Notes: generated by a model not told the origin, from the letters alone. Positions 42,204 through 60,293 are shown, counted from the stretch's first letter. The stretch is 64,000 nucleotides of DNA from Roseburia sp. (GCA_017937095.1 JAGBEG010000012.1:168101-232100); one strand, 5' to 3'. Numbers and translations are program-made.

Positions 42204-42212
42204 TGCATTAAG

Positions 42213-42934: not shown

Positions 42935-43738
42935 TTACAATGATTCGAGCCCTGCTTTCCAGCTCTTTGCTCCAACAATCCCGTCTGCTGTCAGTCCGTG
43001 GCTTGTCTGCCAGTTTTTTGTTGCGCTCTCCGTGCCGCTGCCAAAGATTCCGTCCGGCGTTGTCCCGACAATAATCTGCCACACCCTGACAGCTTTTCCC
43101 CTGCTTCCTCTCCTGATTGTATTCATGCTGCAAACCTCCTTCTCTTCTATATCGTCCTCCCGCAATTTTCCCTGTTCTTCTCCACAGTTCATCTGCCCTG
43201 CCGTTTTGCTGTTCATCTGCCCTGCCATTCCACCGTTCATCTGCCCTGCCGTTCCACTGTTCGTCTGCTCTGCCGTTTCGCTGTTTGGCGCACTGTCCTC
43301 CTCAATGACAGCCGTCTGAAACAGAGCGGTTTCCGCCGCTCTTCTTTTCACAAGTCCGGCAAGTGTCCTGCCCGCCGCCTTGCAGTATTGCGGCATTGCC
43401 GCCGCAATCTGCGCCGCACTTCTTCCCGCGCAAAGCTTTTTCAAATTTCCCGCTCCGCAATTAAATGCGAAAGAAACCAACGCATCGAACTGGTTCTGGT
43501 TGAGCTGCGCCGTGATTGGCACGTATACGGCGTTGTTGACATACTGCTCGAACTTCCGGCAATCCTCCCGCAAGTACTCCTCTGCCTGCGCCTGTGTAAT
43601 GGTCTGCCCCTGTTTTACGCCTGCGGTGTGTCCGTAACCGATTGTCCAGACGCCCGCCGCGCACTGGTATGCCTTAAGGCGGCAGCCCTCAAACTGCATG
43701 ATAAGCTTTAAGCCTTCCTGTCCGATTGTTCTTGCCAT
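42935..43738 (-). CDS. Endolysin: GH24 lysozyme plus peptidoglycan-binding domain
   Basis: LIMQFEGCRLKAYQCAAGVWTIGYGHT; QNQFDALVSF; LTADGIVGAKSW. Confidence 0.92.
   Translation of the reverse strand: MARTIGQEGLKLIMQFEGCRLKAYQCAAGVWTIGYGHTAGVKQGQTITQAQAEEYLREDCRKFEQYVNNAVYVPITAQLNQNQFDALVSFAFNCGAGNLKKLCAGRSAAQIAAAMPQYCKAAGRTLAGLVKRRAAETALFQTAVIEEDSAPNSETAEQTNSGTAGQMNGGMAGQMNSKTAGQMNCGEEQGKLREDDIEEKEVCSMNTIRRGSRGKAVRVWQIIVGTTPDGIFGSGTESATKNWQTSHGLTADGIVGAKSWKAGLESL
43187..43282. repeat. 4 x 24-bp tandem repeat in the endolysin linker
   Basis: GTTCATCTGCCCTGCC(N8) units; encodes repeated xAGQMN. Confidence 0.85.
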
Positions 43739-43741
43739 TGT

Positions 43742-44209
43742 TTATTCCTCCCTTACATCCTGATCCGTTCCTGCCACGCGCTCCGCCTGCTTTTTGATAT
43801 TTTTTATCAGCGGCAATAAAAAGCCCGGAACGCCCACCCCGATATCGATCATATTTTCCAGTATACTGATGATTTCGTTGCAAATGATCCAGATCGCCAC
43901 GATGCAGGCAACCAGAAATGTAAACGGCATTGCAAAGCCCAGCGTAACTGCCCCATACGCTAACAATTGATCGATAATCGCTCCGACCACCACCAGGAGC
44001 CACATCATGATTTTTTTCGTAATGCCCTTCATGCTCTTGTAGGAGCTGATACCGCCGTCCGTCCGGTATTTTGCCGCCGCAAGTCCGGTTATGTAGTCAA
44101 TGATATTACAAATCACCATAAGCAGCACCGGGATGTACATAATTCCCAGGATTGACGACAGGAAGCTCCCTATCGCAGTGAATAATACTTTTACTGAATT
44201 TGTTTTCAT
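43742..44209 (-). CDS. Phage holin (toxin secretion/phage lysis holin family)
   Basis: IIDYITGL...SSYKSMKGITKK...NEIISILEN. Confidence 0.9.
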   Translation of the reverse strand: MKTNSVKVLFTAIGSFLSSILGIMYIPVLLMVICNIIDYITGLAAAKYRTDGGISSYKSMKGITKKIMMWLLVVVGAIIDQLLAYGAVTLGFAMPFTFLVACIVAIWIICNEIISILENMIDIGVGVPGFLLPLIKNIKKQAERVAGTDQDVREE

Positions 44210-44307
44210 ATTTTCCTCTCTTTCCCCGGCTTTTAGCCGGAATAAAATTAAAAGCGCCGGGTAACCAGTCTGTGATAGACCAGTTATCCGGCACGAAATA
44301 TCCCCTC

Positions 44308-45180
44308 CTACGCATACTTTCCATCGTTATATCCGGCATGATAGCCATTCCAATACCCGTCGTCCAGCCCTTTGCTGTATCCGGCATCATAACCAGCCTT
44401 ATAATTGGCACTGCTGGTATTCGCTCTGGCATCTGCCGCCGCAACGCCTGCATTATAGCCGTTATTATATCCTGTCTTATAATTCACGGAATTAGCATTT
44501 GCCCGGTTATCTGCGGCGGTCACCCCTGCATTGTATGCCCCCGCACCGGAAACATATCCCCCGCCGCTATGGTAGCCTGCAGGAATCGTCACATTTCCGC
44601 TGCCAGTCGTGGCACCCGTCCAATTTCCCCGATATGCCATCGGATAGGAAAACAGTGTGTTGCTGTCCGTATACCCTGCATTATTTGCACCTGTCCTTAT
44701 GCAGCACCTTTGTACTCCATCGCTGTTTTTTTCAAAAAATATGGCATCCCCTGCGACAACAGGCGTTTTATTACTCGTGGTATATGTTACAGCAGCGCTG
44801 GCAGACAGATTTTTCATTGTACCGCTTAATCCTATACCAGCAGCATTTGTAAATGTTTTCCCCGCCAGAACGTCCGCCGTCGTTGCTGTTCCCACCTTAG
44901 CGTCTGCTGTTCCGGCATTGTACCTCGCAGTTCCCGCCGCCGTCACATTCTCCGCCATCGTTTCAAATGACGCGTCTGCCGCCGTCGCCGTTCCCTGTGC
45001 AGTGATGGCATCGGCGACAAGTGTTTTGCCATCACTGACAGATTTTTTTACGGCTGCCATTTCCGCTTCTACCGCACCGAGTTTCTCGTCGATGACGTCC
45101 GCATTTGCGTTGAAATCCTCCACATTTACAAGGTCGGCGCCCTCCGGCTTTTTCAGACCATAATTACTTGTCAATATCAT
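44308..45180 (-). CDS. Tail fiber-like protein A
   Basis: Start ATG 45180 (MILTSNYGLKKP); ADVLAGKTF...SGTM and IPAGYHSGGG fiber motifs; GYxxG repeats. Confidence 0.7.
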   Translation of the reverse strand: MILTSNYGLKKPEGADLVNVEDFNANADVIDEKLGAVEAEMAAVKKSVSDGKTLVADAITAQGTATAADASFETMAENVTAAGTARYNAGTADAKVGTATTADVLAGKTFTNAAGIGLSGTMKNLSASAAVTYTTSNKTPVVAGDAIFFEKNSDGVQRCCIRTGANNAGYTDSNTLFSYPMAYRGNWTGATTGSGNVTIPAGYHSGGGYVSGAGAYNAGVTAADNRANANSVNYKTGYNNGYNAGVAAADARANTSSANYKAGYDAGYSKGLDDGYWNGYHAGYNDGKYA

Positions 45181-45181
45181 C

Positions 45182-45802
45182 TTAATCCCTCCCATGATAT
45201 GTTCCATCATTAAATCCGACATGATAACCATTCCAGTAGCCATCATCCAGCCCCTTGCTATATCCGGCATCATAACCTGCTTTATAATTCGCACTGTCAG
45301 TGTTTACTCTGCCGTCTGCGGCGGCAACCCCGGCATGATAGCCCGCCATATAATTTGCTGACGAAGGATTCTCCCTGCCGTCCGCGGCGGCAACGCCTTC
45401 GCCGTATTTCTTATTTCCCGCTGCCGTGATATTATCCGCCATCACGGAAAATGCCGCGTCTGCCGCCGTGTTTACTCCCTGTGCAGTGATAGCTCCGGCG
45501 ACAAGTGTTTTGCCATCACTGACAGATTTTTTTACGTTTTCCATCTCCTTTATCAGCTCCAAAAGCTTCCTTACCGCAAGCTTTAGCTTGCCGAACAGCC
45601 CCCGCAGGGAATCTCCGCTTGTAAGCTCTGTAAGCTGCACTGCCTCCTCAAATTCAACGGTCAGCCCACTCGCTCCGCCGTCCGCGGTCGGTCTTCTTTT
45701 TAACTCCGCGTCAATGATGTCTGCATTGTAATTAAAATCCCGCACATCTACGGGCTCGCCGAGCTCCGGCTTTCTCAATCCATAATTTCCTGTTAATAAC
45801 AT
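45182..45802 (-). CDS. Tail fiber-like protein B (paralog of A)
   Basis: MLLTGNYGLRKP; shared SVSDGKTLVA.AITAQG module and GYxxG tail. Confidence 0.7.
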   Translation of the reverse strand: MLLTGNYGLRKPELGEPVDVRDFNYNADIIDAELKRRPTADGGASGLTVEFEEAVQLTELTSGDSLRGLFGKLKLAVRKLLELIKEMENVKKSVSDGKTLVAGAITAQGVNTAADAAFSVMADNITAAGNKKYGEGVAAADGRENPSSANYMAGYHAGVAAADGRVNTDSANYKAGYDAGYSKGLDDGYWNGYHVGFNDGTYHGRD

Positions 45803-46425
45803 GTTCTTTCCTCCTCTAAAATTCGAAATTCTTCCCAGCTATAACGCTGTGCTTCTTCCCATGTGTAATTTAGTGCTTCCTGCCATGTCGTAAAGCGGTA
45901 TTCAAACTCATATGCCAGATGCGCGGGCTTGATGGTTTCAAGCATCGTGACAAACCCCTGCATATTCTGCGGGATTCCTTTCTTCCCGACAAACCGCACC
46001 GTAAACCTGTAATGAGGGGTGTCCTCGATTACCTCGACCTCGATTCCGGAAAACGCTTCCGCCGTATTCTTTATCATTTCCACCGTCGTTGTTCCCTGTC
46101 CCCGGAGTTTCGCAAAAAGTAATTCCCGCCGCTGTTCATAGGTCAGCAGGAGATTGGTGTCTACTTTTAGAAATTTCTCCCATCTCGCCAACCCCCAGGT
46201 CGCCGATGTGAGAAAGCACTGGTCTGTCACGTCTTCCAATGCGTGTTCGAGATATCCGACCTCATAGCCCTGTGTATCGTACAGGGCGTGCATTTCCTTT
46301 TTTTCGGAGATGAATACCGGAACGAGCGGAAACAGATTCACATAGTACTCTTCCCGCTCCCCGTCTGACGTTTCCGCCGCATAGCGTTTCGTTCCGTACG
46401 GATTCTGTCCATACATTTCTATCAC
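45793..46425 (-). CDS. xkdU: YmfQ/DUF2313 (XkdU-like) baseplate protein
   Basis: TWGLARWEK...RRE...KLRG.GTTT...KPAHL. Confidence 0.8.
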   Translation of the reverse strand: MIEMYGQNPYGTKRYAAETSDGEREEYYVNLFPLVPVFISEKKEMHALYDTQGYEVGYLEHALEDVTDQCFLTSATWGLARWEKFLKVDTNLLLTYEQRRELLFAKLRGQGTTTVEMIKNTAEAFSGIEVEVIEDTPHYRFTVRFVGKKGIPQNMQGFVTMLETIKPAHLAYEFEYRFTTWQEALNYTWEEAQRYSWEEFRILEEERTCY

Positions 46426-47549
46426 CTCCCCATCAGTTCATCCCACGTCGGAGCTTTTCTCACGAAGTCGCCGCCCGCAGACGGCGGTTCCTTCCATGTA
46501 CCGTCTGCACAGAGATATTTTTCCTGCATCCCCGCAGCGGGAGCCGGGACAAGCCCATCCTCTCCTGCGCTTTCTGCGGTCGCACCGGAAAATGGCGCAT
46601 AGGTCGTGTCAGTAAATACCGCATCCGAAGGAACGTCTGCCTCAACCGTGTGCGCATTTACGGTATCTGCATTTCCGCCGTCTGCCGGAAGCGCAGACGG
46701 CTTATTTCGGATAAAGGCGTCCGATGCCGTGTCAGTCACATTCCAGTCCGGCTGCACGTTGACCTCCGCCCCCTGTGCAATGCCAGAGAGCTTATCGAGC
46801 TGCGCCTGTGTGATACCATCAAGCACCGCTTTATTGTCGTGTACATGCTTTTTTAGGTTCGCCTCATCGTATGCCGCTTTGTCCTCGTGACTTAGAAGAC
46901 CGTCAACCTCCTGCGTTGCCTTCGGGATCGCGTTCGCAGAGATCGCTACCCATTCGCTCCCATTCCAGCGGTAAGTATAATCCGTATCCCTGACATTCAC
47001 AGTCCAGCCATCTTCCGGCGCCGGGTATGCCGCCGCAAGATCCTCATAAGTTCCTACCGCTTCTTTCCAGTCAATCGCTGTTTCAAAAGCAGAGAACTTA
47101 TTATCGACCTCATTTCTTGTATACTTGTTATCCCAGTTCGGCTTATTTTCCTCAATAACCTTTTGCAGTTCTGTTTCTGCCGCCCGGGCGCGTTCTTCCT
47201 CGGCATTTAACGCCTCCTGTGTCGTCAAAATGGAGACCTGCACACGGTTGATATCATCCGCCTCGACCGTATCTCCCGGCGTCTCGTAGGTGATATACAC
47301 CGTCGGAACGTCCGCATAGATTCGAATGATGCGCTTCCACGGCGCATTGCTCGGTGTGGACAACGCATAGTTTGTAATCCGCTCTCCGGTAAGCTTGGAA
47401 CCCGTGCAGACCGCAAGCGTGCCCTCCGCTATGTTGTCATGCAAAAGTTCTGCCTCATACACGCCGTTCGTGACGGAGACCTTCTCCTCAATCACATAGA
47501 TCACGCCGTCAATTTTATTTAATTTCTCTGAAAATCTGCTTACTTCCAT
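46422..47549 (-). CDS. Tail fiber/baseplate-associated protein
   Basis: Start ATG 47549 overlapping the baseplate J stop; PAPEDGWTVNV and VNVQPDWN motifs seen in clostridial phage tail proteins. Confidence 0.6.
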   Translation of the reverse strand: MEVSRFSEKLNKIDGVIYVIEEKVSVTNGVYEAELLHDNIAEGTLAVCTGSKLTGERITNYALSTPSNAPWKRIIRIYADVPTVYITYETPGDTVEADDINRVQVSILTTQEALNAEEERARAAETELQKVIEENKPNWDNKYTRNEVDNKFSAFETAIDWKEAVGTYEDLAAAYPAPEDGWTVNVRDTDYTYRWNGSEWVAISANAIPKATQEVDGLLSHEDKAAYDEANLKKHVHDNKAVLDGITQAQLDKLSGIAQGAEVNVQPDWNVTDTASDAFIRNKPSALPADGGNADTVNAHTVEADVPSDAVFTDTTYAPFSGATAESAGEDGLVPAPAAGMQEKYLCADGTWKEPPSAGGDFVRKAPTWDELMGR

Positions 47550-48592
47550 CACATCACCTCCAGACGCACCGCTCCGCACACTGCGATTTCTTCCTGTGCC
47601 AGCGAAATATTTGCGGCTTCGCCGTTCAGCTTCATTTCCGCAAAATCCTCCACGCCCGCCACATCCATCAGCAGACTGCCCATCCGCGCAAGGCTGATAT
47701 ATTCTGCGTCAAATGCATTGCTCTGCAAATACGCATCGACCATTTCATGAAATGTATTCTGCGCAGTACCCAGGGTTGTTTCCCCTGTCAGTTTTACCTT
47801 CGCACTGACGTTGACCGTCAGCTCACGCGCGGAAACAACTGTGACCGCTGCTCCGATTGGCCGCATCTGCTCAATGTAATCTGCGACCTTTGCGATAAGC
47901 GTCTCATCTGCGGCAGTCTTGTTCTCACTCGCAACGACCACCTTGACCGTTCCCGGGCCGTCTGCAAGCGGAAAAATTTTTGCCGCTCCGCTTCCGGTAC
48001 AGGCTAACGCCCAGTTGTAATAATCGCTCACGTTACCGCTCGTTGAAGGTCTCTGCACCTTCGCAAATAAACGCTCACGCAATGCTTCGTCGGATTCCTC
48101 ATCCACGCCTGCCGACAAAATACCAACAAGCTCCGCCGTGCCAAGCCCGCTTATGTACTCGACCGGGAGCAGCGTGCCGATATACTCATTTCCGGTTTTT
48201 CCCGGCGTCTCACACTCCATTTCATAGATGTATGTTTCCCCATCCTTGCGCCGCAGCTCCCCCGCCGCAAAAAATAGCGCCTCTTCCCCGCTCGTGGAAA
48301 AGCGGCTGCCTTCCGGCAGTTCCTTATCAAATCTTCCCTCGCGGATTGCTTTCGTGGCAGCCTTGCGCTCTAATCCAAATTCCTTCACCAGCCTGCTTAA
48401 ATACTCCCCCGCAGACGTGTCCGGCATCACAAGCTCCGGGAAATTGCCGAGCTTAAAATACGCCATTGCAAGGTTGTAGGCGACTGCTGCGGTCGCGTCA
48501 TAGATGATGCTGCCCTCCCGTTTATCCAGATTTTCCGGCAAACGTTGAAACATTGCATCCATAATGTTTTCATACGTCATTTCTTCATACAT
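47549..48592 (-). CDS. xkdT: Baseplate J/gp47 family protein
   Basis: DKREGSIIYDA, GVDEESDEALRER, GPGTVKV. Confidence 0.9.
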   Translation of the reverse strand: MYEEMTYENIMDAMFQRLPENLDKREGSIIYDATAAVAYNLAMAYFKLGNFPELVMPDTSAGEYLSRLVKEFGLERKAATKAIREGRFDKELPEGSRFSTSGEEALFFAAGELRRKDGETYIYEMECETPGKTGNEYIGTLLPVEYISGLGTAELVGILSAGVDEESDEALRERLFAKVQRPSTSGNVSDYYNWALACTGSGAAKIFPLADGPGTVKVVVASENKTAADETLIAKVADYIEQMRPIGAAVTVVSARELTVNVSAKVKLTGETTLGTAQNTFHEMVDAYLQSNAFDAEYISLARMGSLLMDVAGVEDFAEMKLNGEAANISLAQEEIAVCGAVRLEVM

Positions 48593-48986
48593 TAATGTCC
48601 CACCTCATTTCTTCTGTCGTGCCGCCATAAATCGTGCGCACGAAAAAAGTGACAAGGATTTGCTTTCCCGTCACTTCAAATTCAAATGCTTCCACCGTCT
48701 TGATGCGGTCATCCTGTTTTAACGCCTCTGTAATACGCCGTTTCAATTCCGACATCACATAGTCCGTCGGCTTTCCGTAAAGATCCATCAGGTCAATCCC
48801 GTAATTCCACGAGTAGACCGGATATCTGTAGCGTTCCGTGTTTAAGATACAGAAAATAGTCTGCCGAAGTTCCTCAAGCTCCTCACAGGTTCCGGTTATA
48901 TGCTCTCCTCCCGTTTCCATGCGGAAATCCTTCGACGGAATCGTCAGAATATCCACTTCTTTTAATTGATTTCTGACCGGTATCAT
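48585..48986 (-). CDS. xkdS: DUF2634 (XkdS-like) baseplate wedge protein
   Basis: ILNTERYRYPVYSWNYG...RRITEAL.QDDRI. Confidence 0.85.
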   Translation of the reverse strand: MIPVRNQLKEVDILTIPSKDFRMETGGEHITGTCEELEELRQTIFCILNTERYRYPVYSWNYGIDLMDLYGKPTDYVMSELKRRITEALKQDDRIKTVEAFEFEVTGKQILVTFFVRTIYGGTTEEMRWDINV

Positions 48987-48989
48987 GTT

Positions 48990-49364
48990 CTACACCACCT
49001 TTCCCACCAGTAAAAATTTCTGCCCGCCGTGCTGCCTGATCAGTTGCACGTGATCGCCCTTTTGTAAGGGGCTGTGCACTTTTACGGTAAGTTCACCGCC
49101 ATATTCATGCAGGTGCGCAGGTTCGCCAGCCTCCTTGGTGTCCGCAGGTTCTACTGTCACCTTGATTTCATGCTCCGTCAGATGCTCGGGCACGACCAGC
49201 ATATCGCCGCTTATCGTAAAGCGCTGCTCCACCTGTACCTTTAGCGGCTTTGCCGAAAGGATTGTCCCCGACATCACATCCGCCGGATAGGACGCCTCAC
49301 TCGCGCCGACGGACATCTGCTGCATTGCTCTCACCAGATCATTTGTGTCATACACGAAAATCAC
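48990..49364 (-). CDS. DUF2577 (XkdR-like) spike-related protein
   Basis: GTILSAKPLKVQV...LQKGDHVQLIRQHGGQKF. Confidence 0.8.
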   Translation of the reverse strand: MIFVYDTNDLVRAMQQMSVGASEASYPADVMSGTILSAKPLKVQVEQRFTISGDMLVVPEHLTEHEIKVTVEPADTKEAGEPAHLHEYGGELTVKVHSPLQKGDHVQLIRQHGGQKFLLVGKVV

Positions 49365-50304
49365 CTCCCGACACCGTTAAATCCATTGTGTGTTCACTTT
49401 CGCCGTATTTGTGGACACATTTTTCCACAAGCATAAGATTTTGTATCTTTGTGCCGCCAAGATCAAGCTGTACCACAACCAGCGAGCCGCCGCGCACTCT
49501 CGAATCCCCACAGGCATCCCTGATCGTGAGCGACTTCGTTTCCTTGTTGTAAAGCGAAAGCAATGCCGCCGCTTTTGCCTCTCCGTTCTCACCCTCCTGC
49601 AGCTTATCAAAATACTGCAAAAGTCCCCAGCGGTTGATGTTGCCTGAATCTCTCGCCATGTATATCTCTCTTTCTCCCTGCTCCTCGTTGTCGTATACGA
49701 GTTTGACACAGTTGTAGGTGTCAGAATCTATCGTCGTCTCGTAATCAAAGTTCTGTCCTGTCTCCGCGTCTATGACAATCGGCACATACATATCGCCGAG
49801 AAAGGACAGGTTCAATTTTCCAAACGCATCGTACAGCAGATACAAATCTCCGGTATTCTGCAGTGTGAAATTCAGCGCATTTGCAATCATATCAAGCAGC
49901 GATACGTTATCCTCCACTCTGGAAGCAATTTTCCATCCGGTTTCTGCGATCGTGCCGAGATTAAAGCCGTATTTGCTTCCAATCAGCCGCACAAGTCCCG
50001 CCGCCGTCTTGTCTGTATAGACCAGCGTATCCTTATTTTTCAGGTATCTGATCTGGTCATACGCGGTCACTGTCACAATACTGCTGCGGTCACGCTTGAT
50101 GCGGAAAATGAATCCGTAAAACACCTCTGCACCGCTGCTGTCCTTAAACCGCACCGGATTTCCGTTTGCAATGTGGATGCCTGTGTCCACAAAGCTAAAT
50201 TCCAGAACTCCCGGGCTAATCTGCCGCTCGGTCGTGACTTTGACCGTCTCCTCGACCGGGGGCATGTATGCGGTATTCTCATTTTGAATTAGCAACTCGT
50301 ACAT
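49348..50304 (-). CDS. xkdQ: XkdQ/YqbQ-like baseplate hub
   Basis: TAYDQIRYLKNKD, RWGLLQY motifs. Confidence 0.85.
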   Translation of the reverse strand: MYELLIQNENTAYMPPVEETVKVTTERQISPGVLEFSFVDTGIHIANGNPVRFKDSSGAEVFYGFIFRIKRDRSSIVTVTAYDQIRYLKNKDTLVYTDKTAAGLVRLIGSKYGFNLGTIAETGWKIASRVEDNVSLLDMIANALNFTLQNTGDLYLLYDAFGKLNLSFLGDMYVPIVIDAETGQNFDYETTIDSDTYNCVKLVYDNEEQGEREIYMARDSGNINRWGLLQYFDKLQEGENGEAKAAALLSLYNKETKSLTIRDACGDSRVRGGSLVVVQLDLGGTKIQNLMLVEKCVHKYGESEHTMDLTVSGGDFRV

Positions 50305-50399
50305 GGCTTCCTCCTCTCAGTTTTTCTCATAATCCTCATCCTTTCTTCTTTAATTTTCTAAAACTATCTCCATCTACTTGTAAAATCGGCATAATAATA

Positions 50400-50422
50400 C
50401 CCGCCTACATAATGTAGGCGGG
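50400..50422 (-). terminator. Hairpin after the first inserted gene
   Basis: CCCGCCTACA-TAA-TGTAGGCGGG. Confidence 0.6.
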
Positions 50423-50430
50423 CAAATTTT

Positions 50431-51255: not shown

Positions 51256-51321
51256 AACTTTTTTCCTCCTTAACGTTATAGGAGAATTATATAATACTTT
51301 CTTTCGAATGTCGACTATCTT

Positions 51322-51996: not shown

Positions 51997-52045
51997 GTTT
52001 TCCTCCTTTTGTATTTTGTTTTTCCTTAAAAATGGGTATAAAAAT

Positions 52046-52068
52046 CCCGCTTACATAATGTAAGCGGG
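52046..52068 (-). terminator. Hairpin after the second inserted cassette
   Basis: CCCGCTTACA-TAA-TGTAAGCGGG followed by ATTTTT on the minus strand. Confidence 0.65.
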
Positions 52069-52074
52069 TTGGTT

Positions 52075-52836
52075 TTATATCCCTAACAACTGTTTCTTTT
52101 TTGCTTCAAACTCTTCCTTTGTGATTACACCATCATCGCACAGTTTTTTGTACTTTGCGATCTCATCAGCTCCGGAAGTTGTCCCATATCTGTTCTGTGC
52201 TTTTTTCTCTTCCGCGTCTGCCATCATAATCTTAAACTCAGATAAAATATTCTGCACATCCAATTTCAAAAAATTATAGGTCGTACTCCCTTCCTGCACT
52301 TTTCCGTTCGACAGCAGAAAAATGTACTCTTTGCGCATGTTTGGATTCTTCGTTGATATCATTATCATAAGTGAAGTTATCTCCTCCTTCACGCTCTTTT
52401 TCCCGACAGCGGCTCCTGCAATTGCTCCTGCTGCGCCAAATAATGCTCCGCCCGCCAATGCGCTTGCTGTTCCACCGCTTATGACACTGTTTCCATTTTG
52501 TATAACATCTACGCTGACAATATCATCATAAGACATCACAATCGGATCTTTAATGTCATTGGGCACTATCCATTGTCTTTTGTTCTCATCTATGTACAGA
52601 TATTTCTTTACCTTCCTTGTGGCTGAGAACTGCGCTAATAACTCCATATTTTTCTTGTGATTTTCCGTACACTGCAGCACTCTCGCCTTTGGTACATCTT
52701 TAAATTTCTCTCCGCCCGAAAGAAATCCTCCGCTATTGTTTATACAGTTCTGGCAAATCCATCCGTCAGCCAATTTCTCCTTCACCTGAGTGCTCCCGCA
52801 TATACAGCACGGCTCTTTTTTCGCAAACAAACCCAT
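52075..52836 (-). CDS. Zinc-finger plus SHOCT domain protein (moron-like insert)
   Basis: CCICG...ICQNC; ADEIAKYKKLCDDGVITKEEFEAKKKQLL. Confidence 0.8.
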   Translation of the reverse strand: MGLFAKKEPCCICGSTQVKEKLADGWICQNCINNSGGFLSGGEKFKDVPKARVLQCTENHKKNMELLAQFSATRKVKKYLYIDENKRQWIVPNDIKDPIVMSYDDIVSVDVIQNGNSVISGGTASALAGGALFGAAGAIAGAAVGKKSVKEEITSLMIMISTKNPNMRKEYIFLLSNGKVQEGSTTYNFLKLDVQNILSEFKIMMADAEEKKAQNRYGTTSGADEIAKYKKLCDDGVITKEEFEAKKKQLLGI

Positions 52837-52900
52837 TGCTTATTTCTTCTTGAAGTTACTATAACGCATTATGTCACACGCCCTGCCATCAGCGCCCCAT

Positions 52901-53251
52901 TTAAAAACACATTGCTACAATGCCTTTATATGTTGCATCATCCACTTCTATTAACGACTTTTTACCATCCTTGAACTGGATTGCAATCTGATAAATCCCC
53001 TTATCCTTTGCAGATAAACCACCTGCCACCATGCCGACCGGTCCAAGCAACGCACCTCCTACCAAACCTCTGGCGACCCCAGATGCCGCACTCTTGCGAT
53101 GTTCATCTGTAATTACCTCGTAAGATTCAACTGTCGTGCTATCTAAATACAATGGACGAAAAACCTTCACTACGATTGCCGGTTTTGCTCCGCTCATCAC
53201 TGCTTTTCCCTGATAGTCTCCTGCAATAACCATGTTTTTTGCTTTTGCCAT
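52901..53251 (-). CDS. Hypothetical protein (moron-like insert)
   Basis: RGLVGGALLGPVG glycine-rich helix; own promoter CTGACA-17-TATAAT (53313-53285). Confidence 0.7.
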   Translation of the reverse strand: MAKAKNMVIAGDYQGKAVMSGAKPAIVVKVFRPLYLDSTTVESYEVITDEHRKSAASGVARGLVGGALLGPVGMVAGGLSAKDKGIYQIAIQFKDGKKSLIEVDDATYKGIVAMCF

Positions 53252-53325
53252 AATAAGTATTCCTCCTTAATATTTGTAAAACTTATTATACAACATTCTA
53301 CTCCAAATGTCAGCAGTTTTATTTG

Positions 53326-55464
53326 TTATACACCTTCCTTGACAACTTCCATGGATTCAATCACCCGCATGGTCAAACCATCTACGATGCCGTCCAAGTC
53401 ATTCGTGTTGTTTACCATATTCTGCATACCGGACATATCCACCTTGATTTCGGCTGTTGTAAAACGATTGATGGCTTCCTGTTCCGCGAGGTCAAGCAAA
53501 TACTTAAGATTCTCCTGTGAGATATCCAGAGAGTCCGATATATTTGCGGTATCACCCGCTATTCCTGCGATATTATCTGCTACATCCGGGGATGCTCCAT
53601 AGCCGCCATTATCTGTTCCCAAAAATCCGGTTGCATTATTTGCTAAATTCTGAATGCCACCAAATGCATCTTCTCCACCAAAGAAATTAGATATGGAATC
53701 TTCCACACCCTGCCCCCAGTCATAACCAGAATTGTAGGCGTTTGAAACCCATCCATCCTCAAAAGTATCAAATGTTGAGCTGCCTTTATCAAACTCCTCT
53801 CCTATATCCTTGTACTCCATTTTATTACCGGCAGCTTCTGCCGATTTTGCAGCATAATCATCTGCCATTGACGTAATTCCCGAATAATCAATCTCAACAA
53901 ACGGTAATTTGTTCAATGCCACGCATATCTTCTCTACGACTTCAAGCGCTGTAGCCAGCATATCATACCACCACGCAATCACTGAAAATATTGCGTTATG
54001 GAATGCCGCCTGGATATTATATCCTACCGCCTTTACCGCACTGATAATTCCAAGAACAATATTGGCTATGGATAGCCCCAGATTCTTAAAAAACTGAATT
54101 ACAACATTAATGCATCCGCAAATAATCCCGGTCGCAGAGTATGTTGTGTTCTGTGTTTTATTGATCCATGCAACCACCACATATATAACTGCAATCAACG
54201 CGATAATTGCTAAGACAATTATTCCGACTGGATTCATAGACATAACTGTGTTGAATACTGTTTGTACAGTCGTCCATGCTTTCGTCGCCAGTTCTGCCGC
54301 TTTTGCGACTATTGTCGCCCCTTTCGTAATAAGCGTATACGCTGCAATCGCCGCCACAACTCCCCCAATAACCGGCGCAATCATCGACCAATTATCCACG
54401 ATCCATGCTCCGCCTGCTGCCAGCATATCCACTACTCCGAGCGCAATCGTCGCCACGCCGGACAACGCATTCATGACGCCCATGACACAGGTCTGAAGTT
54501 CTCCGCTATTTGCAAGCTCATTTATCCGCTGCAGCACAGGCTGAAACGCCACAAGCGCCCCATTCTGGAACATCGTCCACACCTGTCCCCAGGTCATAGG
54601 CATACTCTCGAACCGTGCATTAATCTCATCCTGCGCCGCAAACATTGCATTCTTCATGATGTCTGCGGTAATCTGTCCCTGCGATGCCAACTCACTGATT
54701 TCGCTTGTCGGAACGCCCATATAGTCCGCCAGTGTCTGCACGAGATTCGGCGCCTGTTTGAAGATACCGCTTAACTCGCTCCCGCTTAAGACGCCATCCC
54801 CCATCGCCTCAGACAACTGCGAAAATGCGGCGGACGATTCGTTCGCTGATAATCCCGCGATTGCGAACTGCTTGTTGGCAAGCTCCGCAAAACCGACCAT
54901 CTCCTCTGTGGAAGAGAACGCATTCTGCGCGCGATTGCCGAGTTCGGCTACAGCCTCCGCCGTGCCCAGATACGATGTTCTGGAGCTCTGCGCCGATTGA
55001 TAAATCATCCGGGACAAATCCGTTGTCGTCTGCATGGTACCGTTCATTTCATTATAACGGGCAACCATCGTATCAAGATGCGTCATCGTCTGTGTCAGTT
55101 CATCCGACATTCCAAGAACATCCTTTACCGTGGAAAGATTTGCGTATTTGCCCACAAGTGTCTTGACTTTGCCAGCCAGCTTCCCGGCAAGGGATGTGCC
55201 TTTCTCCATTTTGCCATTGTGCGCCTCCTGCTTTTCCGCTGCTTCATTGGTCGCGCTTGCAATCTGCTCAATCGGCACCAACTGCTCAGTCAGCTTTACC
55301 CGCGCTGCCTCAAAGACCGACGTATTAAATGCATTTCCTGACACGACCCGCAGCAGCTCCAGTTCCCTTGTCACGGTCTGGACTGCCGTACTGATCTGAT
55401 AAAGCGGCGCAGACGCATGATCTGTCAGCGCTATCGCTGTCTCCATACTTGACATAGTTCTCAC
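53326..55464 (-). CDS. Tape measure protein
   Basis: QSAQSSR, QLSEAMGDGVLSGSEL, SMPMTWGQ motifs; hydrophobic C-terminal repeats. Confidence 0.88.
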   Translation of the reverse strand: MRTMSSMETAIALTDHASAPLYQISTAVQTVTRELELLRVVSGNAFNTSVFEAARVKLTEQLVPIEQIASATNEAAEKQEAHNGKMEKGTSLAGKLAGKVKTLVGKYANLSTVKDVLGMSDELTQTMTHLDTMVARYNEMNGTMQTTTDLSRMIYQSAQSSRTSYLGTAEAVAELGNRAQNAFSSTEEMVGFAELANKQFAIAGLSANESSAAFSQLSEAMGDGVLSGSELSGIFKQAPNLVQTLADYMGVPTSEISELASQGQITADIMKNAMFAAQDEINARFESMPMTWGQVWTMFQNGALVAFQPVLQRINELANSGELQTCVMGVMNALSGVATIALGVVDMLAAGGAWIVDNWSMIAPVIGGVVAAIAAYTLITKGATIVAKAAELATKAWTTVQTVFNTVMSMNPVGIIVLAIIALIAVIYVVVAWINKTQNTTYSATGIICGCINVVIQFFKNLGLSIANIVLGIISAVKAVGYNIQAAFHNAIFSVIAWWYDMLATALEVVEKICVALNKLPFVEIDYSGITSMADDYAAKSAEAAGNKMEYKDIGEEFDKGSSTFDTFEDGWVSNAYNSGYDWGQGVEDSISNFFGGEDAFGGIQNLANNATGFLGTDNGGYGASPDVADNIAGIAGDTANISDSLDISQENLKYLLDLAEQEAINRFTTAEIKVDMSGMQNMVNNTNDLDGIVDGLTMRVIESMEVVKEGV

Positions 55465-55467
55465 CTC

Positions 55468-55650
55468 CTACCTTTTTGAAATTTTCTTCGCCCTGCGCTT
55501 CTCCTCCTCCACCCGGAGGTCGATTGACGCAATGACAAACGCTTTTTCGTTCGCATCCAGCCCCGCAAAAAATGACGGCAGCCAGTGAAACTTCTGTAAG
55601 CAATAATGCGCATACGCCGCCTCACTGTCGCCGCCATCGATTAGTTTTTT
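55468..55650 (-). CDS. -1 frameshift extension of the tail assembly chaperone
   Basis: Slippery A AAA AAC (55650-55644); -1 frame KKLIDGGDSEAAYAHYCLQKFHWLPS...KISKR to TAG 55468. Confidence 0.75.
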   Translation of the reverse strand, partial: KKLIDGGDSEAAYAHYCLQKFHWLPSFFAGLDANEKAFVIASIDLRVEEEKRRAKKISKR

Positions 55651-56099
55651 GCTTCGGCAATCTTCTCCGGCATCGTCTCATCCAGACCGCTGTACTGCTG
55701 CACAAAGGTCGCCAGCTCGCCAAATTCTTCGGGGTTGTCCACCATCTCGGCAATTAATGCCTCCGCGCTGAGGACTCCGTAGGAATCCTGCAGCTCCTTG
55801 CTGTTGAGGTCCGGCTCTACGACCGCTGCGCAGATCATCTTTGTCAGAAGCTTATGGCTGTCTACCTTCTGACGGTACATACCCGGTTTCCCGGTCACCT
55901 GCACCTCCGTCGTGCACTCCTCGCGGATTGCTTCGGACTCCTTTGTGGTGATAGCGCGGATCGTCCACAACAGCGGATTTCCCTTCTCATCACACAGCGA
56001 CCTCGTCACCGGAAACTGTACGGTTTTCTTCTCTTTCTTATTTGTCTTTAAAAATGCCTTCAAATTTCCCATTTTTTCCTCCATTCCAAGGCTATGCAA
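55641..56099 (-). CDS. xkdN: XkdN-like tail assembly chaperone
   Basis: AVVEPDLNSKELQDSYG...EAKN. Confidence 0.85.
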   Translation of the reverse strand: MHSLGMEEKMGNLKAFLKTNKKEKKTVQFPVTRSLCDEKGNPLLWTIRAITTKESEAIREECTTEVQVTGKPGMYRQKVDSHKLLTKMICAAVVEPDLNSKELQDSYGVLSAEALIAEMVDNPEEFGELATFVQQYSGLDETMPEKIAEAKN

Positions 56100-56242
56100 A
56101 TCCCCTTGTCAGCATAAACTACCATCAGAATTTATTCAGCCTTGCTCCATTTTCAATCACAATATTTATAAGCTTCTATCTGTCCTGCCTTCCGGTAATT
56201 CCACCGCAAACGGCAGGCGGCTCTTGCCGCCTTGCCCGCCGT

Positions 56243-56716
56243 TTACAGATAAGACGGTTCCGTATAGGATTCGGGACTGGTGTAATCCGCCGCATAGAAA
56301 TTGATTTCCTGCTCGATGAAACCGCCCTCGGCGTCGAACATCGACAGAAGCACATCCCCGTCAAGTACACAGTCGGTGTACACCTTGGTACTGCGCCCCA
56401 TACAGGTCGATGCGTCGTTATTTGTGGTCTGGATTTCAAACACCGGAAGCTTGCCTGTGTTCTTGTACTCCGTCACCACGCGGTCAAACATTTCCGTGCA
56501 TTTATACACGGTCATCTTTCCCTGAATCACCATGCCTGTCGGCTTCCTGCCGGAAATGATTTTGCCGAGCACCGGAATTTCCTCGGTGCTGATACTTGCC
56601 TTCGCCTCAAAATTTTTCGCGTGAAGCGCCGCATAGCGCCGTCCGCCTATCGTGACAAAGCACTCCGCCTCTTTTGCGCTTGGCACGTCCTGTTCATTCA
56701 TATATGTATTCAACAT
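56243..56716 (-). CDS. xkdM: XkdM-like tail tube protein
   Basis: Follows the sheath; FEIQTTNND. Confidence 0.85.
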   Translation of the reverse strand: MLNTYMNEQDVPSAKEAECFVTIGGRRYAALHAKNFEAKASISTEEIPVLGKIISGRKPTGMVIQGKMTVYKCTEMFDRVVTEYKNTGKLPVFEIQTTNNDASTCMGRSTKVYTDCVLDGDVLLSMFDAEGGFIEQEINFYAADYTSPESYTEPSYL

Positions 56717-56727
56717 TTTTCCACCTC

Positions 56728-58008
56728 CTACTGAACCACTACGGTCATATAAAGCTGTGACATTGCGCCTACGATCGTAACTTTATCCTCCACGGATACG
56801 CCGCGTTTCTCGCTTCCCGCCGTCACGACAACATCTTCCTCCGAAAAGCCCTCGATTGCGCCGCGCTTTTCAAGCTCCTTGTGATGGCGCACGATATCGC
56901 TCCAGAGGCTCACACGCCCTGCCTCGTTGTTCTGAATCTTCCCGTGATACTTTTCATTGAACAGCGCTGCGATATCCATCGCGATCTGATCGAGCACACG
57001 GATGGTCTGATTGCTCTGGAAAAGCTCATTCTTATCCTCGGTCAACGTCACAAGCGAATTGATATCCTCCAGAATACGAACTTCCGTGCCGACCGAATGA
57101 AGTACAAGCTCGCCCGCTGCGATTGCCTTCTCAAGCTGTGTCTGCGTGTAGGAGGTATCTATAGAAAGCTCGCCGTCGTACACCGCGTTCGTGCAGGTTG
57201 CGTTCACCGCGCACGCTGCTTCCATACCTGTAATCCACGGGATAATATCCATGCCGTTTTTCACATTGATGACGCTCTCGCTGTCCGCATCGCAGCCGTA
57301 AAGCACACACTGGAACTTCGTGCCAACCTGATCACGCATACGTCTGGCATATGCTGCGTATAATGCCTTTGTCGTGGCGTCATCCGTGCAGACTCCCATT
57401 GCATTAAAGCTGTACGGCTCGAGCGCGTCCAGATACGCCTGATGCGACTCCCCTGTGATTGTCCCGTTCGTACCTCCGGTAAGTGCTGTTCCGGCGGTTG
57501 CCGAAAGCTCCGCATCCTTTTTCCAGATGACAAATTCGTTGTCCGAAAGCTCCGCCGCACTCTTCACGGTCTGCGCGTCCACGAGGGCTGCATCCATGTA
57601 GAGCTTCACGTCATACGCGCCTTCCACATCAACGCTGTCGCCCACGACGACGCGGAGTGCATTTCCGCGAATGCCCGAATACCTTGCCGTTGCAAACAGG
57701 TTGGACGCTTTCTCTCCCCCGGACGTCAGCTTGTACAGATATGCCTTTGTCGCATGACGGAAAAGCTCCCTAAGCGGCTGCATCTGCTCTGCGGAATACG
57801 GATATCCAAAGACGGCAACCGTATCCTTAAGAAAATCCTCCTGCTCCACGGTAAAGATTACATGATCCGGCCCCCAGTCCAACGCAAGCGGCATCGTTGC
57901 CGCTCCGCGCCCGCTAAGCGCCGCTGCCGCTCTCGCCGCAGAAATAAAATTAATGTATGCACCGGGCAGAACCTTGTTCTGACTGGTAAATGTTCCTCCT
58001 CCTAACAT
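56728..58008 (-). CDS. xkdK: XkdK-like contractile tail sheath
   Basis: GGTFTSQNKVLPGAYINF, LDWGP, IRVLDQIA. Confidence 0.92.
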   Translation of the reverse strand: MLGGGTFTSQNKVLPGAYINFISAARAAAALSGRGAATMPLALDWGPDHVIFTVEQEDFLKDTVAVFGYPYSAEQMQPLRELFRHATKAYLYKLTSGGEKASNLFATARYSGIRGNALRVVVGDSVDVEGAYDVKLYMDAALVDAQTVKSAAELSDNEFVIWKKDAELSATAGTALTGGTNGTITGESHQAYLDALEPYSFNAMGVCTDDATTKALYAAYARRMRDQVGTKFQCVLYGCDADSESVINVKNGMDIIPWITGMEAACAVNATCTNAVYDGELSIDTSYTQTQLEKAIAAGELVLHSVGTEVRILEDINSLVTLTEDKNELFQSNQTIRVLDQIAMDIAALFNEKYHGKIQNNEAGRVSLWSDIVRHHKELEKRGAIEGFSEEDVVVTAGSEKRGVSVEDKVTIVGAMSQLYMTVVVQ

Positions 58009-58172
58009 ACTCCCACCATTCCTTTCATGTATTTTTCAATCATTTTGTCCACATCACTCAAAGAGTACTTTTTGCTGCCGCTAAGGAGCGCTGACAGCAG
58101 ATCGCGTTTGTCCGCATAGCGCTTTGACTCCATAAGCTGCTCTTTCGTGTATATCTTAGTTCCTGTCGCCAT
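58002..58172 (-). CDS. Small conserved pre-sheath protein (56 aa)
   Basis: Hand-translated MATGTKIYTKEQLMESKRYADKRDLLSALL... Confidence 0.65.
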   Translation of the reverse strand: MATGTKIYTKEQLMESKRYADKRDLLSALLSGSKKYSLSDVDKMIEKYMKGMVGVC

Positions 58173-58590
58173 TTTTTACCTCTCCTTTCATTTGATAATT
58201 TTCCATGTAATTTTCTGTTTCCTTCTGGTTTAAAAACATCACGTATTCCGCCACAACCACAAGTCCATCTCCGGAAATGTCCTCGCAGGTCAGGTTCCCA
58301 CGGATTTTTCTGCCCTCCGCCTCAATCAGTTCCAGACAGTCATAAAGCTTTTCAAACACCGTGTTCATTTCCTGATTCGGCGTCTGCGATGCCGGAAGAT
58401 ACTGAATGGAAAACAACAGCGTCATTTTCTTTCGCTCTCCGGGTAGCCTCTCGATTCCCGGATTCCTGCACCGTATGAAAAAGATTGGCGCTCCGCTTCC
58501 CTGTTCTGCTTCCTCCTTACAGATCAGACAGCCGCTTCCAAACGTTCCCCCAATGGCATCCGCTATCGAACCCATTACTTCATTGATCAT
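58156..58590 (-). CDS. Tail terminator-like protein
   Basis: First late gene; EEAEQG...PIFFI...IQYLP pattern. Confidence 0.7.
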   Translation of the reverse strand: MINEVMGSIADAIGGTFGSGCLICKEEAEQGSGAPIFFIRCRNPGIERLPGERKKMTLLFSIQYLPASQTPNQEMNTVFEKLYDCLELIEAEGRKIRGNLTCEDISGDGLVVVAEYVMFLNQKETENYMENYQMKGEVKNGDRN

Positions 58591-58641
58591 TTCACACCTC
58601 CTTTCGCCTGCGGTTCTTTTGATTTGCTTCTTGCAGTTTAC

Positions 58642-58683
58642 ACTATAGCATCCGAAAATCGGACAGTCCGGACAGAACGGACA
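58642..58683 (-). promoter_or_regulatory. Activator-dependent late promoter
   Basis: Extended -10 TGCTATAGT, no -35; three TGTCCG repeats at 9-bp spacing upstream. Confidence 0.6.
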
Positions 58684-58687
58684 AACC

Positions 58688-59110
58688 TTAATTTTCTTTC
58701 ATAAACCGCTCAAACTCCTTGCGGACGCTCTCTCCGGTCGTGTTTCTTCCAATCCGGTCCGCCGTCTGTTCCCAGCTTAAACCTTCGAAAAAACGATACC
58801 GGATGATCCGCTGCATACGCGCAGGACTTACGTTCATCCACTCCTCCACCAGAAGCTTGGACGCCTCCGCTCTCGCGATCCGGTCCTCTAAAAGCTTTTC
58901 CTCCGCGCGGAGCCTGATATCGTCCGAGGTCGTAAACGGCGTTCCCTCCACCGTAAAATGCGTCTGTACATATGGAAACTGATTCATGGAACCGCTCACG
59001 CTGTCCTTTACGATTGTCTGGCGCTTTCTGCGCAGCTTTTCAATATCCTCCTCTGTTTCCTTAATCAGCACACAGGCGTCTATGTATTCATTCAATGCGT
59101 TTTTATCCAT
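58688..59110 (-). CDS. ArpU/RinA-like late transcription activator
   Basis: Start ATG 59110 (RBS GGAGG); RIIRYRFFEGLSWEQTADRIG sigma-4-like HTH. Confidence 0.8.
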   Translation of the reverse strand: MDKNALNEYIDACVLIKETEEDIEKLRRKRQTIVKDSVSGSMNQFPYVQTHFTVEGTPFTTSDDIRLRAEEKLLEDRIARAEASKLLVEEWMNVSPARMQRIIRYRFFEGLSWEQTADRIGRNTTGESVRKEFERFMKEN

Positions 59111-59137
59111 ATATTTTTCCTCCATTCTCTTTCTACT

Positions 59138-59358
59138 CACGTTTCGTGTGTTCTTTTGGCAGAAATATGCCGCGGTGCATCGGCGTACCCGACCATTCCG
59201 CCGCTTTTCATGCATGACGCTACCGGGGCTGTCCGTTTCATGCATGTTTTTAAAATCAGAACATTTGTTCGTTTCATCTGTAATATACACGATTCGTGAG
59301 TTTATGTCAACACATTTTGTGTGTATATCTTGTTTGTTTCTCACAATTCGTGTACAAT
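59138..59358. promoter_or_regulatory. Divergent promoters, four 11-bp operators and a LexA-type box
   Basis: CAC-N5-GTG at 59138, 59288, 59311, 59342; GAAC-ATTT-GTTC at 59259-59270; minus TTGACA-17-TATATT; plus TTGTTT-17-TACAAT. Confidence 0.7.
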
Positions 59359-59390
59359 AAGGAAATAAAAGACAGAAAGGATGTAGAACC

Positions 59391-59783
59391 ATGCCGGAAT
59401 TTAAAGATATGCTGAAATATTTCCGAATGAAGGAGAATCTTTCCCAGAGCGAGCTGGCAGCAAAGCTTGGTATTTCACCATCGGCTGTCAGTATGTATGA
59501 AGTAGGGAAACGGGAACCGGATTTTGAAACCGAGGAGAAGATTGCGGATTTTTTCCATACGGATCTTGATACGCTGCGGGGACGCGAGAGTAGTGACGCA
59601 GAACAGCAGCCTTCCTACTATCTTGACAAGGATTCCTCCGATGCCGCGCAGTTTTTATTCAGCAATCCGGAGTACAAGGTGCTCTTTGACGCTTCCAGAA
59701 AGGTGAAGCCGGAAGATATCAATCTCGTCGCAGAGATGATCAAGCGGATGGCAGGCGGAAGTTCCGACGACACCGGATGTTAG
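59391..59783 (+). CDS. XRE-family repressor (ImmR/cI-like)
   Basis: LKYFRMKENLSQSELAAKLGISPSAVSMYEVGKREP. Confidence 0.9.
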   Translation: MPEFKDMLKYFRMKENLSQSELAAKLGISPSAVSMYEVGKREPDFETEEKIADFFHTDLDTLRGRESSDAEQQPSYYLDKDSSDAAQFLFSNPEYKVLFDASRKVKPEDINLVAEMIKRMAGGSSDDTGC

Positions 59784-59784
59784 T

Positions 59785-60066
59785 ATGTGTCCAAAGAATT
59801 GGACACATACCATGCTATACTGTCCACAGATAGGAGGAATGCGCGTGGATAATGTAAGAACGATTTATTGTGACCTTCCAAACACGGTGGGCGGATTTAC
59901 AGTCGCAACTGCCGACGATTATTTTACAATCGTCTTAAACCAGAATTTATCTTATTATCAGAATTTGGAAACTTACCGACACGAACTTATGCACATCGAA
60001 AACGGTGACTTCGATAAGACATGCTCTGCGGATTTGATTGAAGTGTGTGCACACAACATTATTTAG
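59785..60066 (+). CDS. ImmA/IrrE-like short metallopeptidase
   Basis: YFTIVLNQNL...HELMH (HExxH); true start probably near 59819. Confidence 0.75.
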   Translation: MCPKNWTHTMLYCPQIGGMRVDNVRTIYCDLPNTVGGFTVATADDYFTIVLNQNLSYYQNLETYRHELMHIENGDFDKTCSADLIEVCAHNII

Positions 60067-60105
60067 ATTTCGCATATGATATAGAAAATGTTTTCCGGGC
60101 GTGCC

Positions 60106-60267: not shown

Positions 60268-60293
60268 TTACACTCTGTTTTGCAGAGTATACA

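Follow-up and report, generated by a model that had tools for sequence, protein, structure and literature searches.

A headless contractile tail locus of Roseburia sp. as a probable domesticated R-type tailocin of phiC2-like phage origin

When a contractile phage tail is encoded without a head, is it the remnant of a prophage, one part of a virus whose heads are made elsewhere, or a particle that has been kept for a use of its own? The question is raised by a locus of Roseburia sp. (GCA_017937095.1) that lies in the 64,000-nucleotide stretch JAGBEG010000012.1:168101-232100, here called the window, to which all positions refer unless stated otherwise. An earlier note on this DNA had singled the locus out as a candidate tailocin, i.e. 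a phage tail-like bacteriocin. It occupies positions 42,262-60,330 on the minus strand, its extent being defined by a listing of open reading frames (ORFs) together with PHROG/Pfam profile scans, and these profiles identify a complete phiC2-type contractile tail as well as a holin and an endolysin. Judged from sequence, the locus is probably a domesticated R-type tailocin derived from a phiC2-like temperate Lachnospiraceae myovirus.

The tail operon forms a single minus-strand unit of roughly 15.7 kb that runs from the tail terminator to the endolysin gene. Together with the gene of the late activator, its phage-type components are:

58688..59110, minus strand: late activator, 140 aa, sigma-70 region-4-like (phrog_36, transcriptional regulator, E 1e-15)
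58156..58590, minus strand: tail terminator or collar (PF20765, E 2e-19)
58002..58172, minus strand: 56-aa conserved tail-module protein (phrog_966)
56728..58008, minus strand: tail sheath (PHROG/Pfam)
56243..56716, minus strand: tail tube, DUF2001 (PHROG/Pfam)
55468..56099, minus strand: XkdN-type tail assembly chaperone with a -1 programmed frameshift (profiles and substitution pattern)
53326..55464, minus strand: tape measure protein, 712 aa (profile)
51322..51996, minus strand: XkdP-like LysM tail protein
49348..50304, minus strand: XkdQ/YqbQ-like baseplate hub protein, 318 aa
48990..49364, minus strand: XkdR-like protein (DUF2577)
48585..48986, minus strand: XkdS-like sheath initiator or baseplate wedge
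47549..48592, minus strand: baseplate J-like wedge protein
46422..47579, minus strand: 385-aa baseplate-distal protein (phrog_13589/18608)
45793..46425, minus strand: XkdU/Mu Gp48-like baseplate protein
45182..45802, minus strand: tail fibre 1, 206 aa
44308..45180, minus strand: tail fibre 2, 290 aa from MILTSNYGL..., a paralogue of fibre 1
43742..44209, minus strand: holin, Phage_holin_4_1
42935..43738, minus strand: endolysin, GH24 lysozyme and PG_binding_1, with a linker of 8-aa tandem repeats

The part list of a tailocin (terminator, sheath, tube, frameshifted chaperone, tape measure, hub, baseplate and fibres) is complete at the locus. As the earlier note had held, the tail, baseplate and lysis ORFs are intact, all being full length relative to PHROG/Pfam profiles and to their homologues in complete phages. 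The activator also matches sigma-70 ECF region 3-4, below threshold, and the hub protein has no C-terminal hydrolase domain, which is likewise the case in the closest complete phages. Conversely, profile scans of the ORFs between 42262 and 60330 found no terminase, portal, capsid, adaptor, replication or integrase gene, so that the absence of these blocks claimed from the first inspection holds for this interval.

Comparison with complete relatives reveals what was lost. The sheath is ~50% identical to those of the Clostridioides difficile phages phiC2, phiMMP01 and CDMH1, and the closest complete phages are 38-49-kb IMG/VR viral contigs (e.g. 3300029851_000242 and 3300029830_000326), with identities of 70-74% in the sheath, 84-85% in the tube and 63-65% in the activator. 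In these phages, early genes (PAPS-reductase-like, DNA methyltransferase) are followed by the activator, a head block, the terminator, the 56-aa protein and the sheath. The head block comprises terS, terL, portal, minor head protein, scaffold, major head protein, two adaptors and a neck/tail-completion protein, with the activator homologue directly upstream of terS. Relative to this arrangement, the locus is missing everything from terS through the neck/tail-completion gene, the early genes before the activator, and any integrase; the lost neck protein is needed for head joining. Activator and terminator are separated by ~8.9 kb in the complete phages and by 97 bp in the window, in line with the original description of the one gene as directly followed by the other. 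Two short elements lie in this gap:

58642..58683, minus strand: late promoter, three TGTCCG hexamers with a 9-bp period (58683-58660) and an extended -10 element TGcTATAGT (58650-58642)
58601..58611, unstranded: deletion junction, passing from the late-promoter leader straight into the terminator ribosome-binding site

All relatives carry a promoter directly 3' of the activator stop codon that is built in the same manner, with three hexamers at a 9-bp period followed by an extended -10 element (TGnTATAGT). The hexamer sequence varies from phage to phage (TGTCCG, TGTTCG, GTTACG, GTCACG, TTTTCG) at a conserved position, as expected if the hexamers are the activator's own binding site. In the 3.9-Mb genome the triple TGTCCG occurs only once. 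The window retains the late promoter and the first ~30 nt of its leader, followed directly by the terminator ribosome-binding site. As the promoter has been kept and joined to this site, the tail operon appears to be wired to the phage's own late promoter.

Is such a locus maintained, or merely not yet degraded? The latter possibility corresponds to a cryptic prophage remnant, i.e. a recent product of multiple deletions without a function of its own, whose genes are intact by recency or through recombination with infecting phages. We regard this as unlikely in view of the variants that can be compared. An identical sheath protein was found on 11 contigs that come from several samples and share both the FtsX flank and the headless layout. 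Scanning metagenome contigs with the terminator protein detected a second variant, its sheath ~92% identical and its layout likewise headless, which occurs in several ENA samples and on 24 contigs or more. The junction structure of this variant matches that of the window base for base; the exact 36-mer across the junction had no match in JGI metagenome contigs. Since the junction is common to both variants, the loss of the head is older than their split. Over the genes for the XRE repressor and ImmA-like protease (see below), the activator, the terminator, the 56-aa protein, the sheath, the tube and the chaperone, the two variants differ by 297 synonymous and 93 non-synonymous changes (pN/pS 0.087), without any stop codon. 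The omega values of individual genes are 0.03 for XRE, 0.03 for ImmA, 0.05 for the activator, 0.14 for the terminator, 0.07 for the sheath, 0.01 for the tube and 0.02 for the chaperone, with a value of 0.63 for the 56-aa protein that stems from seven differences only. Between the window and the same-site strain GCA_965314465.1, 146 synonymous and 64 non-synonymous differences were counted in the genes of the back half, again without a stop codon.

A further constraint is seen in the chaperone gene, which carries a -1 frameshift at A_AAA_AAC (55650-55644), just before the XkdN stop codon, with an extension that ends at 55468. Past this stop codon, all 11-12 substitutions between the variants fall on third positions of the -1 frame and are synonymous there, which points to a conserved frameshift that extends the chaperone. 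The same stretch contains a 58-aa ORF (55461-55637) in frame with XkdN, between chaperone and tape measure; every between-variant substitution hits its second codon positions, and it was dismissed as spurious because the stretch is read in the -1 frame as the XkdN extension. Taken together with the operators, the promoter and the LexA half-sites described below, the apparent constraint on the frameshift is hard to explain by chance.

A remnant would thus have to be reconciled with same-junction variants that lie dS 0.2-1.25 apart at this low pN/pS, with no stop or frameshift in any gene, with conserved non-coding control elements and a conserved frameshift signal, and with losses (the integrase side, the early block and the head block) that leave exactly the switch, tail and lysis genes. 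Moreover, core tail genes rather than partial sets are found in 7/7 headless loci examined. What lends the remnant some credit is the ongoing exchange suggested by mosaic divergence and by a 100%-identical front half between strains, the patchy occurrence of the locus among species of the genus, and an insertion sequence (IS) element in the moron region of one variant.

Several observations also weigh directly against the tailocin assignment. The locus is mosaic, with a tape measure that is 72-88% identical between variants and a dS of 1.25 in XRE. Its front half (window 55461-60066, from the regulators to the chaperone) is 100% nucleotide-identical to GCA_965314465.1, yet the adjacent FtsX gene shows a dS of 0.215 and the tape measure is only 75% identical; identity beside diverged neighbours indicates that the front half was recently transferred by recombination or swept. 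The low dN/dS may accordingly owe something to segments taken over from functional phages by recombination, and would to that extent not have been earned in the headless state. In addition, the locus is sporadic in the genus, a related sheath being present in 6/100 other species genomes sampled, one of them at >90% identity. The genome assembly (3.9 Mb in 24 contigs) is 94.6% complete, so that the absence of head genes is not absolute. Finally, the hairpin terminators of the moron cassettes (see below) are internal to the late operon, where they might reduce the transcription that reaches the baseplate and lysis genes. With mosaic recombination as the caveat, the comparisons nevertheless support a locus that is maintained by purifying selection in the headless state. 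The proposal of domestication rather than decay gains support in this way, as relaxed selection is not seen between headless variants that share the junction.

A copy in a metagenome-assembled genome (MAG) of Roseburia hominis (G259, sheath 93%) was considered as a headless orthologue and proved unusable, its contig starting 137 bp before the gene of the 56-aa protein; no terminator homologue was found in this assembly. Downstream of the copy (G259:C28:10500-20300) lie genes for ParA, ParB-like, BlaI-like, HNH and Rep-like proteins in place of chromosomal genes. This tail copy may be plasmid-borne or belong to a phage-plasmid version.

Could the tails still be filled from elsewhere? A genome-wide search for head genes in trans, suggested by the earlier note, found no cognate ones. 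The genome contains one sheath gene and one HK97-type capsid gene; the latter is located on contig C24 in a siphophage prophage (C24:236000-256000) that is unrelated to the tail locus and holds the only head genes of the assembly. This prophage is complete, with terminase, portal, minor head protein, scaffold, HK97-type capsid, major tail protein and a 1004-aa tape measure. When the assembly was searched by tblastn using the nearest complete phage's head proteins, none of the cognate terS, terL, scaffold, capsid, adaptor or neck genes had a homologue, and the C24 portal and minor head protein are only distantly related to the cognate ones (23-30% identity). The Pfam portal and terminase profiles (PF04860 and PF03354) had no match in the genome, a result of little weight since the C24 portal and terminase were seen only by homology and PHROG. 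It is thus very improbable that the locus is still viral, in the sense that heads encoded by the C24 prophage or by unassembled DNA give DNA-filled infectious or transducing particles. The missing fraction of the assembly, its division into 24 contigs and the distant portal and minor head protein leave some room for this scenario; against it, the C24 element has a major tail protein and tape measure of its own, cognate head homologues are lacking from the assembly, and the cognate capsid is also absent genome-wide from 5/5 genomes searched among six that carry other headless loci (see below).

The tyrosine integrase gene at 40879-42111 (plus strand) lies just outside the tail locus, and its membership in the tail element was ruled out. 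Alignment to GCA_965314465.1 places it in a ~50.8-kb integrative and conjugative element (ICE; C9:159,513-210,305 of the assembly, window 1-42,205), which is bounded at both ends by a 25-bp direct repeat equal to the 3' end of a tRNA-Gly(CCC) gene. One copy serves here as a boundary marker:

42181..42205, unstranded: ICE att repeat, 25-bp copy of the tRNA-Gly 3' end, outside the locus

Strain GCA_965314465.1 has the same tail locus without the ICE, and there a gene for a 195-aa membrane protein is followed by host genes (Peptidase_S66, NfeD, patatin and others). As the ICE has its own tRNA-Gly repeats and is absent in this strain, the integrase belongs to the ICE and not to the tail locus. Around the latter no att-like direct repeats beyond chance were found; it has neither an integrase nor att repeats of its own, and its FtsX and tRNA-Gly/S66 flanks are common to several strains. 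The headless layout is in this manner syntenic, at the same chromosomal site in several strains, as the earlier note had proposed to examine. The 92% variant sits in a different flank. The sequence of many metagenome contigs breaks off some 130-155 bp upstream of Peptidase_S66, and others carry another element there (LPD1/DUF6674 genes), which marks the site as an insertion hotspot. The edges of the locus are formed by:

42262..42849, minus strand: 195-aa membrane protein, adjoining the endolysin in all strains of the species; locus membership uncertain
60298..60328, minus strand: hairpin with a 12-bp stem (terminator scan), 3' of the XRE-ImmA-DUF6774 genes, right edge of the locus

Beyond the right-edge hairpin follows the host gene for an FtsX-type ABC permease (stop at 60539).

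How would a headless tail operon be switched on? The regulatory region between the tail genes and the right edge contains the following features:

59391..59783, plus strand: XRE/RstR-like helix-turn-helix (HTH) repressor, divergent from the activator
59785..60066, plus strand: short ImmA/IrrE-like Zn-metalloprotease, 93 aa, HELMH motif, presumed anti-repressor
60088..60267, plus strand: small ORF, DUF6774 by sister-contig gene calls, last gene of the regulatory operon
59138..59352, unstranded: four 11-bp palindromic operators CACRWTTYGTG at 59138, 59288, 59311 and 59342
59282..59310, minus strand: activator promoter, sigma-70-type, TTGACA-17-TATATT, 11/12 consensus
59258..59271, unstranded: LexA (Cheo) box CGAACAAATGTTCT, just 3' of the activator promoter -10

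Repressor and activator are divergent, as had been described, and are separated by a 280-bp spacer. The four operators compare with 0.35 expected in the whole 64-kb window, and one of them falls inside the spacer of the activator promoter. Boxes of the form CGAAC-N4-GTTC occur 15 times in the 3.9-Mb genome, another one being located ~100 bp upstream of recA, against which the box at the activator promoter was validated. The 92% variant keeps the operators, the TTGACA-17-TATATT promoter and the LexA half-sites, with differences in the neighbouring bases and in the N4 of the LexA box. The ImmA-like gene is called as 73-84 aa with later starts on sister contigs; the idea that the 93-aa version is a truncated fragment was rejected, as HELMH is present and the match to a short family is end to end. 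Elements of SOS-type control, namely LexA box, XRE operators and ImmA-like protease, are thus present at the sequence level, from which we infer that the locus is under SOS-responsive control.

The following course of events is proposed for the tailocin. In unstressed cells, the XRE repressor at its four operators and the host LexA at the Cheo box would keep the activator promoter shut. Upon DNA damage LexA would be removed and the small ImmA-like metalloprotease would inactivate XRE, allowing the sigma-region-4-like activator to be made and to bind the three TGTCCG repeats that stand in for a -35 element. This would turn on the single late promoter fused to the tail terminator gene, and the ~15.7-kb operon would then give rise to terminator-capped sheath/tube particles that are assembled on the tape measure and bear a baseplate and the two paralogous fibres. 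Lysis of the producer by holin and endolysin would free the particles, which are predicted to bind related cells via the variable fibre 2, to contract and to puncture the envelope.

The two fibre genes are tandem paralogues with a common N-terminal "NYGLxKPE..." anchor and a C-terminal 66-nt repeat region, and differ in their middles. Fibre 2 is 64% identical in the R. hominis MAG copy, compared to 90-99% for core genes there. Being the most divergent structural gene between variants, fibre 2 likely encodes the receptor-binding protein. The endolysin linker (window 43181-43300) consists of 24-nt (8-aa, TAGQMNxG-like) tandem repeats; the endolysin has 267, 259 or 243 aa depending on the strain, and the repeat linker is visibly shorter in the 243-aa copy.

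Two moron cassettes interrupt the tail genes:

52046..53313, minus strand: moron cassette 1, with its own promoter (53313-53285) and hairpin (52068-52046)
52901-53251, minus strand: PH_gly_zipper protein of moron cassette 1
52075-52836, minus strand: PH_gly_zipper+SHOCT protein of moron cassette 1
50398..51314, minus strand: moron cassette 2, with its own promoter (51314-51286) and hairpin (50424-50398)
50431-51255, minus strand: Zn-ribbon membrane protein of moron cassette 2

Both are AT-rich and have a sigma-70 promoter close to the consensus; their hairpins are almost the same (CCCGCTTACATTATGTAAGCGGG and CCCGCCTACATTATGTAGGCGGG, respectively). The hotspot between tape measure and LysM gene holds one gene in one strain, two in the window (the third moron gene lies past LysM) and seven in the 92% variant, where a DDE transposase is inserted in one instance. 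These cassettes bear on a different kind of explanation, namely that the locus is maintained for another role: SOS-triggered altruistic lysis (releasing vesicles, DNA or public goods), provision of tails to a tail-less phage or capsid-only satellite, or phage exclusion by the morons. The lysis cassette, intact and wired to SOS, would suit the first of these, and the morons, with their own sigma-70 promoters and terminators and a content of one to seven genes by strain, the last. A lysis or moron function alone, however, would not account for purifying selection on some 14 structural tail genes and on the chaperone frameshift, there is no capsid-only element in the genome (its sole capsid gene resides in a complete siphophage with its own tail), and the neck/tail-completion gene required for joining a head has been deleted. 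Such a role has a modest chance at best, and we favour the tailocin over it.

Is the Roseburia locus an isolated case? Sheath genes were surveyed in 300 other Lachnospiraceae species genomes and in the matches of a GTDB contig scan. Seven related genomic loci (~50-55% sheath identity) carry full head modules, while six loci, in Konateibacter massiliensis and in genomes G186, G047, G060, G222 and G260, have no head module within 10-12 kb upstream. In the latter the order is host genes, repressor (XRE and ImmA-like, or LexA-like), sometimes an activator-like gene, terminator and sheath. Tube, chaperone, tape measure, LysM protein, XkdQ, XkdS and baseplate J are kept in all six, and matches to XkdR-like, XkdU-like and holin or lysin proteins are seen in most of them. 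Retention of the core tail genes in all seven headless loci, the window included, argues against random decay. The headless loci occupy separate branches of the sheath tree, where they adjoin complete phages, a pattern suggesting that heads were lost several times independently, probably on at least five occasions. Common to the window and the other headless loci are a switch directly before the tail terminator, the core tail genes and host flanks; the six others sit at different insertion sites and have other regulators (some a LexA-like repressor, others no activator), and their sheath identity is only about 50-53%. In K. massiliensis (NZ_LT860099.1 2239711-2261012) a LexA-like S24 repressor, a 197-aa activator-like protein and an HTH protein precede terminator and sheath, and the locus adjoins DNA methyltransferase and restriction-like genes. 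It is conceivable, though we put it forward tentatively and would not be surprised if it failed, that Lachnospiraceae repeatedly convert phiC2-like prophages to chromosomal SOS-inducible R-type tailocins by removal of the head block and placement of the terminator behind the switch or late promoter. Such a family of hitherto undescribed weapons would then partly mediate warfare between strains of abundant butyrate-producing gut commensals (Roseburia and relatives), and the variable morons inside the operon may be accessory immunity or exclusion genes.

Roseburia and other Lachnospiraceae rank with the most abundant of the butyrate producers in the human gut, and no description of a tailocin in Roseburia or any member of the family was found in the literature. 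If the tailocin assignment is true, an SOS-inducible, strain-specific killing particle would bear on strain replacement and stability in the microbiome, on how antibiotics and inflammation, both SOS inducers, reshape commensal populations, and on the design of narrow-spectrum particles. The locus would also be a clean natural case of a change from phage to weapon, with its deletion junction, the activator-dependent promoter that was kept and the related complete phages all identified. Within this one family, the same headless outcome seems to have been reached several times and independently.

Which known system does the locus resemble most? With complete phiC2-like myoviruses it shares the tail module gene for gene, the late-promoter architecture and the moron hotspot between tape measure and LysM gene. 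It differs from them in the absence of a head module between activator and terminator and of early genes, and an intact temperate phiC2-like prophage, with integrase, early/replication genes and head module, is not what is found here. PBSX of Bacillus subtilis is a defective phage that acts as a bacteriocin, keeps head and terminase genes and packages host DNA. The locus is similar to PBSX in its Xkd-type tail parts, Xre repressor and sigma-like late factor; SOS induction and killing without productive infection, known for PBSX, are predicted for the locus. As the locus has no head or terminase genes, it is neither PBSX-like nor a gene transfer agent (GTA). No match to AAA+ ATPase or toxin families was obtained at the locus with PHROG for all ORFs and with Pfam/NCBIfam for part of them. 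The absence of ATPase and cargo, the presence of phage lysis genes and the Xkd-type parts set it apart from extracellular contractile injection systems (eCIS) of the Afp/PVC type.

R-type tailocins are well known in Gram-negative bacteria. The R-type pyocins of Pseudomonas aeruginosa are headless contractile tails encoded between host genes, with a repressor and activator tied to SOS, their own holin and lysin, and variable fibres that determine specificity; they are of P2-like phage origin and regulated by PrtR/PrtN. A fixed headless tail set, a switch with predicted SOS control, a lysis cassette and variable fibres recur at the Roseburia locus. Unlike in R-pyocins, to which there is no sequence relationship, the ancestor appears to be a phiC2-like Firmicute myovirus, the parts are of XkdN/XkdP/XkdQ type, and the switch is XRE/ImmA-like with a sigma-region-4-like activator.

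Among Gram-positive tailocins, only a few have to our knowledge been studied (diffocin, and the F-type monocins and efagins). Diffocin, encoded by the rtb cluster of C. difficile (CD1359-CD1376, about 20 kb), is an SOS-inducible R-type bacteriocin of a Gram-positive host in whose cluster the collar/terminator gene directly precedes the sheath, followed by tube, tape measure, LysM protein and baseplate (PMC10996793, PMC4453579). The Roseburia locus has the same part list in the same order. Its terminator aligns only weakly with the diffocin collar CD1362, albeit over the full length (E 0.28), and its sheath matches CD1363 only with E 1.8e-10 over half the length, compared to about 50% identity to phiC2-type sheaths. 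The hub protein has no hydrolase domain, unlike that of diffocin. As depicted in PMC4453579, a lysis cassette is shown only in the phi027 prophage and not in the diffocin cluster, in contrast to the holin/endolysin cassette present here. Distant sheath, weak collar match, hub without hydrolase and lysis cassette together indicate that the locus is not a diffocin orthologue, and its structural genes are not orthologous to CD1362-CD1374. The parallel with diffocin that was drawn at the outset consequently stands in its functional part and falls in its genealogical one, and the candidate Roseburia tailocin probably arose independently of diffocin from the phiC2-type lineage with which it shares its sheath.

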